Part shown: positions 896-13,052 of the stretch, piece by piece
Position numbering within the stretch: position 1 is the first letter of the stretch
Layout: each line of letters opens with the position of its first letter
NCBI GenBank assembly: GCA_038058635.1
Contig: JBBUAP010000001.1
Coordinates: forward strand, 384,771 to 448,770
Reading direction: 5' to 3'
DNA: 64,000 bases
Origin: Patescibacteria group bacterium
GTDB taxonomy: Bacteria; Patescibacteriota; UBA1384; 2-12-FULL-50-11
The notes under the pieces: generated by a model
The model's database searches: none
The model's input: only the letters and a program-made list of their open reading frames with translations
What the model was told of the DNA's origin: nothing
Translations under genes and position numbers: made by a program

Positions 896-2626
896 ATGAA
901 AAACGAAGAATACGAAAAATCAGAGCTCTACAAAATCCGTCACACCACTTCGCATATATTGGCGATGGCGGCGCACGAGTTTGATCCAGAGGTGAAATTT
1001 GCGATTGGTCCGCCAATTGAGAGCGGGTTTTATTATGACTTTGAGTTCTCTAAACCTATTACCGACAGCGACCTGAAGACACTCGAAAAATCAATGTACA
1101 AGATCATCAATCAAAACTTCCCGGTGACGCACGAAGTTTTGAGTCGTGGCGCCGCCATCACCAAAATCAAAAAAACTGATCAACCGTATAAGCTCGAGCT
1201 AGCTGAAGATTTAGAAGACGACAAGCTTGGATTCTATAAGATTGATTGGTTTGAAGATCTCTGCAAAGGCCCGCATGTTAAATTGACCGGGGAAGTAAAG
1301 GCCTTCAAACTACTTAGCGTGGCCGGGGCTTACTGGCGCGGTGACGAGAAAAAAGCGATGCTAACCAGAGTTTATGGCACCGCTTTTGGCTCGAAGAAAG
1401 AGCTTGACGCTCATCTCGCCCAACTCGAAGAAGCCAAAAAACGCGACCACAAAAAGCTTGGGCCCCAACTCGATCTGTTTCTATTTTCCGATCTAGTCGG
1501 TGCTGGCTTGCCGCTCTGGACGCCCAAAGGCAATACCCTGCGGCTAATTCTAGACGACTATGTTTGGTCGCTTCGAGCCAAGAAGGGCTATCAAAAAGTG
1601 GAAATCCCCCATATTGCCAAGAGCGATCTCTACAAAAAATCTGGTCATTGGGACAAGTTCCAGGACGATTTAATGAAAATTGAAACACGCGAAGGTCACA
1701 CTTTTGTCTTGAAGCCGATGAACTGCCCTCACCACACCCAAATCTTCGCTCGAAAATCTTGGAGTTACCGCGAACTACCCCAGCGCTACGCCAATACAAC
1801 GATGGTTTATCGCGATGAGCAAACCGGCGAGTTAGCTGGTTTATCGCGCGTTCGTTCAATTACCCAAGATGATGCCCATGTTTTCTGCCGAGCCGATCAG
1901 GTCAAGGATGAGCTTCTGGCCGTTTGGGACATTGTCAGCGAGCTTTACGCTAAGGTTGGTTTCAGTGATCTGTCGGTCCGTTTGTCGTATAGCGACCCCG
2001 CCACTCCAGACAAGTACTTGGGCGAAGCTCGCGTTTGGCAGAAGGCCGAAGCTGAATTGGAGCAGCTGGCCAAGCAGAAGAAAGCCAAGTACGAAATTGC
2101 TCCGGGTGAAGCGGCCTTTTACGGTCCTAAGATTGATTTTATGGCTCGCGATTCGCTCGGGCGACAGTGGCAATTGGCCACCATTCAGCTCGACATGAAC
2201 CTACCCGAGCGATTTGATTTGCATTTCATTAACAGCGAAGGCAAAGAGGAGCAAGTGATTATGATCCACGCAGCCATTATGGGTTCGATCGAACGATTCT
2301 TGTCGGTCTTAATCGAACACTACGCTGGCGACTTCCCGCTTTGGTTAGCACCAGTCCAAGCCAAAATCCTGCCGATTAGCGAAAAGTTTGTCGATTACGG
2401 CCAAGCCGTCGCCGCCGAGCTGGAAAAATTAGGGGTTCGTTTCGAGCTCGACGACGCTTCGGAAACTCTGGGCAAACGCATACGTAATGCCGAAAACCAA
2501 AAAGTGCCCTTTATCTTAATCGTTGGCGAAAAAGAAGTTGCCGACAGAACCGTCACAATCCGTTCTCGCCACGAAGTTGAGCAAAAGACTGTCAAATTAA
2601 CCGAGCTTGTTAAGACTTTCGAATAG
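896..2626 (+). CDS. thrS: threonyl-tRNA synthetase (lacks N-terminal TGS domain)
   Basis: 576 aa. Begins at the N2/editing-domain motifs (RHTTSHILAMA, IGPPIESGFYYDF) and carries class II aaRS catalytic and anticodon-binding regions. There is an in-frame stop 24 nt upstream, so no TGS domain is encoded. Confidence 0.9.
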   Translation: MKNEEYEKSELYKIRHTTSHILAMAAHEFDPEVKFAIGPPIESGFYYDFEFSKPITDSDLKTLEKSMYKIINQNFPVTHEVLSRGAAITKIKKTDQPYKLELAEDLEDDKLGFYKIDWFEDLCKGPHVKLTGEVKAFKLLSVAGAYWRGDEKKAMLTRVYGTAFGSKKELDAHLAQLEEAKKRDHKKLGPQLDLFLFSDLVGAGLPLWTPKGNTLRLILDDYVWSLRAKKGYQKVEIPHIAKSDLYKKSGHWDKFQDDLMKIETREGHTFVLKPMNCPHHTQIFARKSWSYRELPQRYANTTMVYRDEQTGELAGLSRVRSITQDDAHVFCRADQVKDELLAVWDIVSELYAKVGFSDLSVRLSYSDPATPDKYLGEARVWQKAEAELEQLAKQKKAKYEIAPGEAAFYGPKIDFMARDSLGRQWQLATIQLDMNLPERFDLHFINSEGKEEQVIMIHAAIMGSIERFLSVLIEHYAGDFPLWLAPVQAKILPISEKFVDYGQAVAAELEKLGVRFELDDASETLGKRIRNAENQKVPFILIVGEKEVADRTVTIRSRHEVEQKTVKLTELVKTFE

Positions 2627-10217: not shown

Positions 10218-10598
10218 TTAGTATCGGGCGGTTGCTTGGACGACGGGTTTTGGGGGAGAGTTTTTAAGAAATTCTAGGGCATTCTCGAGCGAATCGCCCT
10301 CGAGTTCGATAATCGGTTTGTCGAGTAGCCACCCCAGTGTATTGGCGGCGGCGACGCCCATTCTGGTGCCGGTGTACGAGCCGGGTCCAGTCAGGACGGC
10401 GACGGCATCGATATCTTCGATTTTAGTTTTGGCAGATTTTAAGAGCTTGTCAGTCAATTGTTGCAGATCTTGGGCCCGGACGGGGGCGACTAACTTTTTG
10501 ACCTTCCCTTCATCAACCAACGCGACGCTAGTTTGGTCGCGGTTAGTGGTATCAAATACCAATATTCTTCGAGAAGAGAAAGATTCTTGTTTGGTCAT
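10218..10598 (-). CDS. tsaB: tRNA threonylcarbamoyladenosine biosynthesis protein TsaB (short form)
   Basis: ILVFDTTNRDQTSVALV..GPGSYTGTRMGVAAANTLGW is typical of YeaZ/TsaB. Start assigned to MTKQES at 10598. Confidence 0.7.
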   Translation of the reverse strand: MTKQESFSSRRILVFDTTNRDQTSVALVDEGKVKKLVAPVRAQDLQQLTDKLLKSAKTKIEDIDAVAVLTGPGSYTGTRMGVAAANTLGWLLDKPIIELEGDSLENALEFLKNSPPKPVVQATARY

Positions 10599-10977
10599 CG
10601 ATGATTTCCAGTTTGATAGTCTTAATATTTTTTGGCAAATGTTCCAAACCAATTTCCGGCCATTCAATGATCGTTAGCGCCGATTGGTCGTCGAGATAGT
10701 CCTGCCAGCCGAAGGTTGTTAGCTCGGACGGTTTGAGACGGTAAAAATCGAGATGGACAACTTCTTTAAAGTCGCTGTAATTGACCGGGTAATGCTTTTC
10801 CAAGACGAAAGTTGGGCTGGTGACTCGCCCCTCAAAACCCATTTCTCGTAAAATATGTTGCGTCAAAGTCGTTTTACCGCTGGCCAACGGCCCTGACAAC
10901 GCCAAAACATCCCCGGGCTGGAGCGAGCCGAGAACTTCTTGGGCGATTGATGGGAGATCAGAGAGTGTAACCAACAT
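10552..10977 (-). CDS. tsaE: tRNA threonylcarbamoyladenosine biosynthesis ATPase TsaE
   Basis: Walker A GPLASGKTTL, SPTF motif and HLDFYRL, typical of YjeE/TsaE. The start at MLVTLS (10977) abuts the 3' end of tRNA-Gln. Confidence 0.75.
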   Translation of the reverse strand: MLVTLSDLPSIAQEVLGSLQPGDVLALSGPLASGKTTLTQHILREMGFEGRVTSPTFVLEKHYPVNYSDFKEVVHLDFYRLKPSELTTFGWQDYLDDQSALTIIEWPEIGLEHLPKNIKTIKLEIIDDQTRIFLFSKNIGI

Positions 10978-10979
10978 TG

Positions 10980-11050
10980 TTCCCGGGCTAGGATTCGAAC
11001 CCAGATACACGGCACCAAAAGCCGTAGTCCTACCATTAGACGACCCGGGA
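10980..11050 (-). tRNA. tRNA-Gln (anticodon TTG)
   Basis: The reverse complement folds as TCCCGGG-TC-GTCT-AATGGTA-GGAC-T-ACGGC-TT-TTG-GT-GCCGT-GTAT-CTGGG-TTCGAAT-CCTAG-CCCGGGA-A. Confidence 0.8.
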
Positions 11051-11118: not shown

Positions 11119-11481
11119 TTAGCTCCCAATGGGGAATTGGCTGAATCTGGCAAGGCGCTGCCCAGATTTGTTAGTGACGGTTTCAGTAAAGTCCTCTGGG
11201 GTTTGAGCCCAGTAGGTGGCCTCACATGAAGGGTGGTAGACAACGCACCAGCCCGTCCACTCCTTTGTAAACGCGTACGCCATACCAACGACCACGTAGA
11301 ACTTCTCGTTGTTGTAGTGTTGGTAGGTTCCTGGCTTCACTACGATATCGCTGAGTGGGAGAGGGCAGTCTTGAACATCGCCATCGCGCTCTACGATAAA
11401 GTAATTCTCCTCCGAAAGAAGTAGGAGAAATCTCGATCCGGTTGGCTTATAGCGCACCGATGAAAACCATTTAAGTTGCAT
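11119..11481 (-). CDS. DUF1653-like domain protein
   Basis: YQHYNNEKFYVVVGMAYAFTKEWTGWCVVYHP resembles the YRHYKG...VVY pattern of DUF1653. Confidence 0.45.
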   Translation of the reverse strand: MQLKWFSSVRYKPTGSRFLLLLSEENYFIVERDGDVQDCPLPLSDIVVKPGTYQHYNNEKFYVVVGMAYAFTKEWTGWCVVYHPSCEATYWAQTPEDFTETVTNKSGQRLARFSQFPIGS

Positions 11482-11643: not shown

Positions 11644-12385
11644 AAAAGAGCCCTCCTTTCGGAGGGCCTTTTCGGAAGTCTGTAAGCCGGGTTCTGTTTT
11701 AAACGATCATCTGTCTAAGCGTTGAGACCAATATTCAATTGCGAGACCGCAATGGAGCTCGTTGTTCCTTTTGGGAACTTCAAACTTAGATTAAATATCG
11801 GCCCACTCAACTTGCACCACGCTGGGTTTAGCTACTCGCCTTATTACTAAGGACGATTGTGCGCTCTTACCGCACTCTTTTCACCTTTGCCTGTTCCGAT
11901 TCAGTTAGGAAGGGGTGTCACACCTGAGCGCGACACCCATGGTCTATGGACTGCGGGATACTCCGCAGTCGAAGTGGCCGTACTCAGTACGGGCCACTAT
12001 AGAGAGACGATGATTGGTCTTCGACCAGAAGCAGATTCGCCCAATACACGGAGTTTGGACATTTCGATTTTCGCTTCCGACTCTTCTCCTAGTGTCCAAC
12101 CCCTTTCAACGTCCCTGGTAATGATGGTGACGATTTCGGATGCCTGGATTTCGTCGGTCGCTTCAAATCCAAACCGTGCGACGACTCCTCCACGCAGCCT
12201 CATGAAAAGCTCATAATTCATACCCATCTTCTTTCCTCCTAACTGAACCGGACATTGGCTGTTTTGTTTCTGTGCCACTTTCCCTTAGATTGCTCTAGCC
12301 TGCCGTTAGCAGGAGCGCGTCTCTATGGTGCCCGGACTTTCCTCACATGTTAATGCGCGATCGTTTCGACTTCGGGGAAAATATA
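11644..12385 (-). ncRNA. rnpB: RNase P RNA (bacterial type A-like) with a large insertion in P9
   Basis: On the minus strand: the P4 5' strand GAGGAAAGUCCGGGCACCAUAG (plus 12313-12334), a P5-P8 region paralleling E. coli M1 RNA (GGGAAAGUGGCACAGAAACAAAACAGCC), the P10-P12 signature AGGUGAAAAGAGUGCGGUAAGAGCGCACA (plus 11848-11876), the P4 3' strand ACAGAACCCGGCUUACA (plus 11677-11693), then hairpin GGCCCUCCGAAAGGAGGGCUC + UUUUCG terminator. Length is about 740 nt against 350-450 nt typical, because of the insertion described in findings. Confidence 0.65.
11997..12227 (-). CDS. hypothetical 76-aa protein encoded inside the rnpB P9 insertion
   Basis: AGGAGG (plus 12235-12240) lies 7 nt upstream of the ATG at 12227. 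The ORF reads MGMNYELFMRLRGGVVARFGFEATDEIQASEIVTIITRDVERGWTLGEESEAKIEMSKLRVLGESASGRRPIIVSL, is co-oriented with rnpB, and is followed by three strong hairpins. No family recognised. Confidence 0.3.
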   Translation of the reverse strand: MGMNYELFMRLRGGVVARFGFEATDEIQASEIVTIITRDVERGWTLGEESEAKIEMSKLRVLGESASGRRPIIVSL

Positions 12386-12404
12386 ACAAAAATAAGGTAA
12401 AAAG

Positions 12405-13052
12405 TCAATGCAAAAAGCTCTGGCGGTGGAGGGGGCAGGGGCCGATAGCGTCGAGGGCTTTTTTGTGCGCGAGAGTGCCGTATCCGGCGTTTTGCCGCCA
12501 GCAGTATTCGGGGTGAGCTTGGTGATAAACGCTCATTAATCGATCCCGGTAAACCTTGGCAACAATTGAGGCGGCGGCAACGGGATAAAACAGCGAATCG
12601 CCCCGAATGGCACTAATGAACCGAGGGACACCCGCCGGGTGGACTCGGTCGGTGAGAAGGAGGTCGACGCTAATGTCAGCTAAGGCGCGCTCATACGCCA
12701 GTCTTTGGGCGGCGGCCAAACCGAGCTGGTCGATTTCGTCGTTACTGGCTATACCGAAAGAGATTTGGAGGGCGGAGTAATGAATTTGATGGGCTAGTAA
12801 CTCTCGTTTTTGCGCGGAGAGTAACTTTGAGTCGTTGATGCCGTTAATCGGCTGATAAATCTCCACTGCCGCAACCACCAATGGCCCGGCTAAAGCGCCG
12901 CGGCCAACTTCGTCGATGCCAACAATTGTTTTGTAACCGAGTAACCGAAGGTCTTTAACGAACCTGGGCCTTGGCCTTCGCGACCGGTTTTTTGCCAATA
13001 ATGCTCGGCGAATCGTTTTCTTTGAGGAATCGGCCAGTAATCGATTTGGCAT
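12405..13052 (-). CDS. rnhB: ribonuclease HII
   Basis: IVGIDEVGRGALAGPLVVAAV and the DSK...IVAK motifs of RNase HII. The listed start overlaps the uvrA-paralog 3' end by 98 nt, so the true start may be a downstream non-AUG codon. Confidence 0.8.
   Translation of the reverse strand: MPNRLLADSSKKTIRRALLAKNRSRRPRPRFVKDLRLLGYKTIVGIDEVGRGALAGPLVVAAVEIYQPINGINDSKLLSAQKRELLAHQIHYSALQISFGIASNDEIDQLGLAAAQRLAYERALADISVDLLLTDRVHPAGVPRFISAIRGDSLFYPVAAASIVAKVYRDRLMSVYHQAHPEYCWRQNAGYGTLAHKKALDAIGPCPLHRQSFLH

Follow-up and report, generated by a model that had tools for sequence, protein, structure and literature searches.

RNase P RNA, the essential catalyst of tRNA processing, is a textbook non-coding housekeeping ribozyme. 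The locus examined here provoked a question: can the gene for such a ribozyme, rnpB, also house genes for proteins? The stretch of DNA that was analyzed (hereafter the window; 64,000 nucleotides of a Patescibacteria group bacterium, assembly GCA_038058635.1, contig JBBUAP010000001.1, positions 384,771 to 448,770) carries an rnpB gene in which the original prediction had noticed an insertion flanked by inverted repeats and containing a 76-codon open reading frame (ORF). Our answer, which rests on the comparison of sequences, is that the tip of helix P12 of this RNA and of its counterparts in related organisms is a conserved slot for interchangeable, sometimes tandem ORFs. The pattern becomes apparent only when the window is compared with other genomes.

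Is the host ribozyme itself intact? The Rfam covariance model for bacterial type A RNase P RNA (RF00010) placed one full-length RNA of 703 nt, P12 insert included, at window positions 11671–12373 of the minus strand (155.6 bits, where the gathering score is 100; E = 3e-48; model positions 1–367, untruncated), which bears out the original prediction of a single rnpB on that strand. Both strands of P4, GGAAAGUCCGG and ACAGAACCCGGCUUA, are present and aligned with high posterior probability, as are the S-domain modules P8, P9, P13 and P14. When the window is compared with L001, a related locus, P8 displays a compensatory change (CCUGC/GCAGG against CCAGC/GCUGG), and compensatory changes are found in the P15–17 hairpin, too. 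The 84-nt 5' core is 100% identical among the window and two further relatives, L023 and L026. With its conserved elements aligned, its paired changes and its identical core, the host ribozyme looks functional, as judged from these alignments. P18, a known variable feature of RNase P RNA, is missing from the window RNA: a 24-nt segment of the Rfam model was aligned to 0 nt (window 11671–11800). In the same interval of the minus strand, the RNA has an extra hairpin of ~34 nt in the P15–P17 region; the close relatives L001 (positions 880–935) and L023 retain a P18-like hairpin.

The gene has a single set of transcription signals. A sigma-70-like promoter on the minus strand (12380–12408; TTGACT, a 17-nt spacer and a TG-extended TATATT; 10 of 12 consensus matches) ends 6 nt 5' of the start of the RNase P RNA. 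It is the sole promoter-like site upstream of the ORF on that strand, and none is found within the insert. The first terminator-like site after it is the intrinsic terminator of rnpB that had been anticipated from the sequence, GGCCCUCC GAAA GGAGGGCU followed by a U-tract, at 11668–11649. Between this promoter and this terminator, no further promoter-like or terminator-like site was found on the minus strand.

The position of the insertion had to be revised. The original prediction had placed it in P9, and had read GGUAAGAGCGCAC as a landmark of P10–P12. In the Rfam alignment, one very large insertion (~355 nt) separates model positions 136 and 137; it sits at the tip of P12, and the supposed landmark is actually the loop and 3' strand of P13; P9 is intact at ~12298–12285 and has a normal GCAA loop. 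The hairpin that bears the insertion sits between J11/12 (CACAGAAA) and J12/13 (GGUGAAAA); the order along the RNA is J11/12 (CACAGAAACAAAAC), the insertion hairpin, J12/13 (AAAGGUGAAAAG) and the P13 motif GUGCGGUAAGAGCGCAC. Judged against the established secondary structure of E. coli M1 RNA, we take this hairpin to be P12, and even its base is similar to that of E. coli P12: GCC, AAUGU and CCGG are found on one side, and UCGG, AAC and AGGC on the other.

The inverted repeat proved to be real. A search for such repeats returned 16-nt arms at 11895–11910 and 12237–12252 that are 94% complementary; read base by base, they form a 17-bp helix between 12251–12235 and 11912–11896 (duplex energy ~−33 kcal/mol). 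No direct repeat that would represent a target-site duplication flanks this stem. Its 5' strand, CCGGUUCAGUUAGGAGG (12235–12251, minus strand), ends in AGGAGG (12240–12235). As had been proposed, these six bases constitute both a strand of the stem and a Shine-Dalgarno (SD) sequence: a 7-nt spacer separates them from the ATG at 12227 that opens the 76-codon ORF (11997–12227, minus strand; MGMNYELFMRLRGG...RRPIIVSL; protein P0001), whose TAG stop codon ends at 11997. The three GC-rich hairpins expected after the ORF were likewise located on the minus strand. Hairpin 1, GUGGCCCGUACUGAGUACGGCCAC (11997–11974), starts on the final base of the stop codon, and hairpin 2, GACUGCGGAGUAUCCCGCAGUC, occupies 11970–11949; both are present in a single copy in the window, have no U-tract behind them and are missing from the orthologous insert of L001. 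The third, the junction hairpin GGGUGUCGCGCUCAGGUGUGACACCC (11938–11913), likewise lacks a U-tract; it abuts the 3' strand of the stem, CUUCCUAACUGAAUCGG (11896–11912), which pairs with the SD strand and sequesters it. Compared with shuffled sequence, the enclosed RNA has a far better predicted fold (z = −6.6).

Is the ORF a gene? Its counterpart in L001, P0002, occupies the same place in rnpB, has 74 aa and is 77% identical to P0001; the flanking RNase HII is 71% identical between the two loci. The two ORFs differ by 27.7 synonymous and 21.3 non-synonymous changes, for a ratio of non-synonymous to synonymous substitution rates (dN/dS) of 0.16, while the other frames yield 1.3–1.4; 28 of the 49 differences fall in third codon positions. 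The GC content of the window ORF, overall and at third codon positions (GC3), is typical of the genome. A second pair of orthologues, the first ORFs of loci L005 and L035, gave a similar picture (23.0 synonymous and 25.0 non-synonymous differences; dN/dS 0.24; 1.1–1.9 in the other frames), and our selection estimates rest on these two pairs. Where the original prediction had allowed for a frame lacking conservation, with dN/dS near 1, the outcome was thus the opposite. AGGAGG lies 5–12 nt before the start codon in 13 of 13 ORFs from nine alleles of the slot, including the internal ORFs of arrays. In general, AGGAGG precedes a real-looking ORF start at 8 of 23 sites; most permuted control hexamers scored lower (six such hexamers, 1–8 of 13–35 sites), with the overlapping GGAGGA comparable to AGGAGG itself. 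From these data, we conclude that the P12 ORFs are very probably protein-coding genes under purifying selection, and the original prediction of a protein-coding unit nested in a functional-looking RNase P RNA is supported.

The wider distribution of such alleles was examined with two sequence patterns. A 27-nt pattern spanning J12/13 and P13 had matches in 19 species-representative genomes, of which 17 are titled Candidatus Saccharibacteria, Saccharimonadales or Saccharimonadia, one Candidatus Nomurabacteria, and one “bacterium”. Eighteen of the 19 carry an ordinary rnpB of 330–416 nt with a P12 of ~20–80 nt (one is cut by the end of its contig). The nineteenth, L005, has a P12 of 870 nt (rnpB at L005 2567–3490). 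The additional RNA in P12 kept this rnpB from being reported by Rfam at the gathering threshold, and genes of this kind are therefore overlooked by standard annotation. The other pattern, a 24-mer covering P10/11 and J11/12 that is specific to the window's subclade, identified 11 metagenome contigs, and protein look-ups added further loci. All of the subclade loci share the neighborhood of uvrA, rnhB and rnpB, along with tsaE where the contig reaches it. Their RNase HII proteins are 58–74% identical to that of the window, and they therefore derive from related but clearly different organisms.

Nine alleles (window, L001, L005, L025, L028, L032, L035/L034 and L036, together with the numerous copies of the L032 type) have a P12 extension of the same build. 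The layout comprises a 5' strand of the form CCGGYUCAGUUAGGAGG, a spacer of 5–12 nt, an ATG (once, GTG) and an ORF of 60–94 codons; on the 3' side, a GGG...CCC hairpin abuts a strand of the form (C)YUYCCUAACUGARUCGG. The eight alleles besides the window's contain nine mutually dissimilar ORFs of 60–94 aa, including arrays of two or three. The window's cargo is the 76-aa protein and that of L001 its 74-aa orthologue, while single ORFs that look unrelated to it are found in L025 (72 aa), L028 (80 aa) and L032 (60 aa). L005 has three tandem ORFs (87, 61 and 82 aa). The L035/L034 and L036 alleles both start with an 87-aa orthologue of the first L005 ORF, followed by an ORF of 81 aa in the former and 94 aa in the latter.

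Every ORF in an array is preceded by its own copy of a 14-nt box, GCUCAGYUAGGAGG, and each array has a single 3' strand. In L005, L035 and L036, the shared first cassette is consequently joined to three different downstream partners, with the junction exactly at the box. The 12-nt core of this box, TCAGYTAGGAGG, is confined to the P12 of rnpB in the 35 related loci that were scanned. In alleles whose RNase HII proteins are ~60% identical, the cargo proteins are at most 24% identical (in one alignment), which argues that the cargo was replaced rather than that it diverged in place. Could these structures stem from faulty assembly? At least 24 contigs, drawn from several projects, contain an independently assembled L032-type allele (cargo P0009), and P0001 occurs on several contigs, eight of which were examined; the alleles are therefore no assembly artefact. 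Two relatives lack an ORF altogether: in L023, P12 is only 14 nt long (UACCC GAAA GGGC); in L026, it is non-coding and ~130 nt long. RNase P can therefore function without the cargo, and turnover at this site is fast. Because the distal P12 of both differs from that of the ORF-bearing alleles, neither is an exact empty site, and the boundaries of the insertion could not be read from them.

The stem is the constant part of the slot. Its 5' strand is identical or differs by one base across all nine alleles. Over five distinct versions of the stem, 99% of cells are paired, compared to 18–53% when the partner strand is slid. Thirteen of the 17 pairs are invariant, and one has changed on both sides, from U-A to C-G. 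Where only one side has changed (three cases), the change is on the strand opposite the invariant AGGAGG; that is, the SD strand is constant, and its partner varies (CCUUCC, CUCCU, CCUUUC). Because the stem recurs, 99% paired, in eight alleles of other organisms, it is not a chance repeat. What had been regarded as terminal inverted repeats is instead a conserved RNA helix common to alleles with unrelated cargo. A GGG...CCC hairpin is found at the same junction position in every allele; its sequence is variable, but it is always paired (6–11 bp, −9 to −20 kcal/mol). In three alleles (L025, L028 and L035), the last ORF terminates at a UAG in the loop of this hairpin, 8–10 nt before the 3' strand.

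Several features of the loci surrounding these alleles deserve mention. In the window and the other alleles, rnpB is co-oriented with rnhB and uvrA; in L001, rnpB is inverted relative to these genes, converging with a slight overlap (283–974 and 942–1589), and the orientation of the cargo within rnpB is kept there as well. Lineage-specific insertions of ~50 nt are also present between P5 and P8/P9 in L025 and L032, and inside P13 in L026, which has this insertion besides its extended P12. The cargo protein P0009 has been deposited as a “hypothetical protein” in genomes labeled Candidatus Berkelbacteria, e.g. L041 (GCA_001776125.1, MEZU01000014.1; positions 1501–1683); the taxonomic labels of the subclade thus differ between sources. 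The source habitats of these alleles comprise Hainich groundwater (ERZ12926xx), the Rifle aquifer (the GCA_001776125.1 lineage) and those of the Logan runs SRR22388241 and SRR21686408/16.

What are the cargo proteins? A Pfam scan of all of them, with E-values up to 1, yielded only sub-threshold noise, with no transposase, homing-endonuclease, LAGLIDADG, GIY-YIG, HNH, reverse-transcriptase, S23p or RnpA domain, and scans against PHROGs and PADLOC detected nothing significant. Apart from the cargo proteins themselves, a word-indexed search of 5.8 billion proteins, with a single protein and with an eight-sequence alignment, recovered just two more orthologues of cassette A. A HMMER search of 1.84 billion representatives recovered only P0002 and three proteins of ~800 aa with E ~1e-4, which we take as noise. 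No match was found in viral, phage and plasmid collections. On the strength of these sequence searches, the cargo proteins are orphans in the libraries that were searched. Five of the families have a loose motif in common, a hydrophobic residue followed by E-A-x-[SDN]-x-x-x-A. The AlphaFold2 model of the window protein had a mean predicted local distance difference test score (pLDDT) of 58.7 with two sequences and 66.4 with eight; the eight-sequence model has a beta-beta-alpha-beta core and a disordered tail. The increase in pLDDT upon the addition of other families hints that they may have a common fold. A HicB-like antitoxin was considered from the sequence pattern but not adopted.

How might such genes be expressed? 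We give about an even chance to the following reading: the P12 tip in one subclade of Saccharibacteria is a conserved slot for promoterless small-protein genes that would be cotranscribed with the ribozyme and whose translation would be gated by the stem. The ORFs would be transcribed solely as part of the rnpB transcript. The SD sequence emerges from the polymerase ~330 nt ahead of its complement, and ribosomes could therefore load on the nascent RNA; expression would take place in the interval before the 3' strand is synthesized. Once this strand has been made and the last ribosome has gone, the stem would close (~−30 to −37 kcal/mol), silencing the outermost ORF and making P12 continuous again in a mature ribozyme from which the insert is not removed. 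In the three alleles whose last stop codon lies in the loop of the junction hairpin, a terminating ribosome would hold the stem open and thereby prolong expression. Recombination at the repeated box, as well as between the conserved flanks in rnpB, would best account for the turnover of cargo.

A number of points weigh against this account. The covariation in the stem is thin: there is one compensatory pair, and 118 of 500 shuffles did at least as well, i.e. the control was not significant. Support for the stem thus comes from conservation and pairing rather than from rich covariation. The window's own stop codon is 85 nt from the 3' strand, and the argument that a ribosome holds the stem open is therefore inapplicable to it. 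The internal SD boxes of the arrays have no partner strand of their own, so that closure could gate only one ORF at a time. The structure prediction for the cargo is of low confidence (pLDDT 59–66). Finally, RNase III could plausibly cut a perfect 17-bp helix with a hairpin stacked on it.

The last of these points leads to the chief rival explanation, which we consider rather unlikely, though well short of improbable: the insert might behave like the intervening sequences (IVSs) of ribosomal RNA (rRNA). RNase III would cut the P12 stem and free a small structured mRNA, leaving a working RNase P RNA whose two pieces are associated non-covalently; translation would proceed from the excised fragment, with the SD sequence partly freed and the 3' end protected by the junction hairpin. 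The near-perfect 17-bp helix stacked on a 6–11-bp hairpin in every allele fits such a scheme. So does the dispensability of P12 length, given the 14-nt P12 of L023 on an otherwise near-identical RNA, and the placement resembles that of the ORF-bearing IVS in Coxiella 23S rRNA, which is located in a variable helix and is excised by RNase III (PMC4990558). However, the SD sequence lies at the apical end of the stem and would stay paired in the excised fragment. Further, the RNA of the Coxiella IVS is quickly broken down, and the ORF within it is in decay and seemingly not translated (PMC4990558), whereas the P12 ORFs are under purifying selection. A motif scan for rnc, the gene for RNase III, found none in the window, a result that says nothing about the rest of the genome. 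It also counts against excision that we know of no bacterial RNase P RNA composed of two pieces. The original prediction had offered a lineage-specific helix expansion with a gene and an RNA-processing-dependent expression device; judged by the sequence evidence, these correspond to two live hypotheses.

The remaining alternatives fare worse. It is improbable that the P12 extension is neutral and non-translated, with ORFs that arose by accident. Enlarged helices are common in the RNase P RNAs of the candidate phyla radiation (CPR), large extensions having been reported there (PMC8172020), and we observed non-coding P12 extensions of 60–170 nt with long stems in L024, L026, L027, L030 and L033; that the cargo proteins are orphans without a family match also agrees with this notion. 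It does not account for dN/dS values of 0.16 and 0.24 that are confined to the ORF frame, for the AGGAGG that precedes all 13 ORFs (the internal ones of arrays among them), or for an SD strand that is invariant while its pairing partner varies. We hold it to be more improbable still that a mobile element, be it a homing intron or an element resembling an insertion sequence (IS) or a miniature inverted-repeat transposable element (MITE), was inserted into rnpB, with the stem as its terminal inverted repeats. A MITE-like insertion had been suggested in the original prediction, and a small ORF flanked by inverted repeats, present or absent among close relatives, does have that appearance. But no second copy of the repeat, box or hairpins was found in the window or, outside the P12 of rnpB, in the 35 related loci, and the cargo has no transposase or homing-endonuclease domain in Pfam. 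The insert, moreover, contains no group I or group II intron or other Rfam family at E-values up to 10, and phage, plasmid and viral sequences offer no match. Here the “repeats” are constant and the cargo differs, whereas copies of a single element would show the reverse.

To return to the reading that we favor, a stem-gated slot in the rnpB transcript, it may be extended, more tentatively, as follows. RNase P RNA in these organisms could be a natural hybrid of ribozyme and messenger, in which the mature RNA keeps the P12 gene array and translation is coupled to the synthesis and folding of the ribozyme. The same site could serve as a cassette site that swaps fast-turning, possibly conflict-related small proteins between lineages, with the sequence of the ribozyme providing the homology arms. 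We find this fuller version possible but short of an even chance.

How does the slot compare to known systems? Translational control by long-range 5'–3' pairing is familiar from the delayed folding of the MS2 maturation gene and from fold-back inhibition in hok mRNA. As in those cases, the complement of the SD sequence lies downstream of the whole ORF, and only nascent or processed RNA would be translatable; here, the closing helix is also a structural element of a ribozyme. Short tandem repeats occur in the P12 of RNase P RNA from heterocystous cyanobacteria. Length variation there and in CPR RNase P RNAs (the latter, PMC8172020) affects the same tolerant site, the solvent-exposed distal P12; elsewhere it is non-coding, whereas the expansion described here has SD sequences, start codons and ORFs under selection. 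Lui et al. reported that CPR RNase P RNAs have diverged, that their helices are extended or missing and that they are often missed by standard models; ORFs in RNase P RNA go unmentioned (PMC8172020).

The 23S rRNA IVSs of Coxiella and Leptospira, with their S23p ORF, are alike in that an extra segment of a few hundred nt lies at the tip of a variable helix in an essential stable RNA, has a long closing stem and a small ORF, and is present in some relatives and absent in others. They differ in that the host here is RNase P RNA and the cargo, by its lack of a Pfam match, is not S23p; in addition, the P12 cargo is interchangeable and sometimes tandem. The ORF of the Coxiella IVS has no working ribosome-binding site and is decaying (PMC4990558), while the P12 ORFs feature a strong, conserved, stem-embedded SD sequence and purifying selection. 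CPR rRNA genes are full of intron-like insertions that encode LAGLIDADG endonucleases, according to Tsurumaki et al., and in their survey Saccharibacteria were the exception without rRNA insertions (PMC11270868). These group-I-like introns and the P12 inserts have in common the radiation in which they occur and the presence of coding insertions in structural RNA genes; unlike the former, the P12 insert has no intron-like structure in Rfam and no endonuclease domain.

Dual-function RNAs such as transfer-messenger RNA (tmRNA), SgrS/SgrT, RNAIII/hld and SR1/SR1P combine a structured RNA and a message in one transcript. The rnpB gene described here has the sequence features of this class (a single promoter and terminator, an SD sequence with a start codon, and purifying selection). 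None of the known examples is a catalytic housekeeping ribozyme, however, and translation in the present case is predicted from sequence. In ribosome profiling, rnpB serves as a non-translated control (PMC10117765). The arrays also recall those of integrons, in which promoterless, interchangeable, tandem small ORFs are bounded by a repeated site and depend on one external promoter. In contrast to the integron case, the 14-nt box is a direct repeat with no attC-like imperfect palindrome, and the array is inside an RNA gene; no integrase was seen beside it, the neighbors being uvrA, rnhB, a DUF1653 gene and tsaE.

Some observations concern the neighboring genes and more distant rnpB genes. Directly downstream of rnpB, at window 11119–11481 of the minus strand, is the gene for a 120-aa DUF1653 protein (a weak Pfam match, E = 7e-6). 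Of the relatives inspected, L002 and L003, which are copies of the allele in the window, are the only ones that have it; the corresponding position is occupied by an RRM_1 gene in L034 and by a 117-aa gene without a Pfam match in L037–L044. Further downstream (10552–11050, minus strand), the longest ORF for TsaE (152 aa, starting with GTG) overlaps a tRNA gene at 10980–11050; the 141-aa version in public assemblies avoids this overlap. Distant AT-rich CPR rnpB genes (L024, L027, L030, L031, L033) share the 24-mer of P10/11 and J11/12. In all five, P12 has a non-coding extension of 60–170 nt that is closed by a long perfect stem, and on this account P12 expansions with long stems seem common in CPR bacteria. 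As far as the end of P12, L029 (~1000–1354, minus strand) matches L027 and L031 exactly; it then joins straight to the 3' strand of P4 (AUACAGAAUCCGGCUUA), skipping P13–P18. It is either a deleted copy of rnpB or an assembly variant.

In the full-text literature, with subscription journals outside its coverage, we found no description of protein-coding inserts in rnpB. The P12 slot can be classed with two known kinds: intervening or expansion segments of stable RNAs that bear ORFs, and dual-function RNAs. We found no close precedent for a catalytic RNA as the host, for a ribosome-binding site that doubles as a strand of a ribozyme helix, or for interchangeable and tandem cargo in one conserved slot. 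On the practical side, insert-bearing rnpB alleles fall below or escape standard detection, and their ORFs are deposited as “hypothetical proteins”. If the reading favored here is true, the idea of dual-function RNA would be extended to a catalytic RNA, and the slot would offer a natural system for studying the competition between RNA folding and translation. It would also mean that, in the insertion-prone stable RNAs of CPR bacteria, homing endonucleases are not the sole possible cargo. The orphan cargo proteins themselves are a compact group of candidates in the search for novel functions of small proteins from episymbiotic bacteria.

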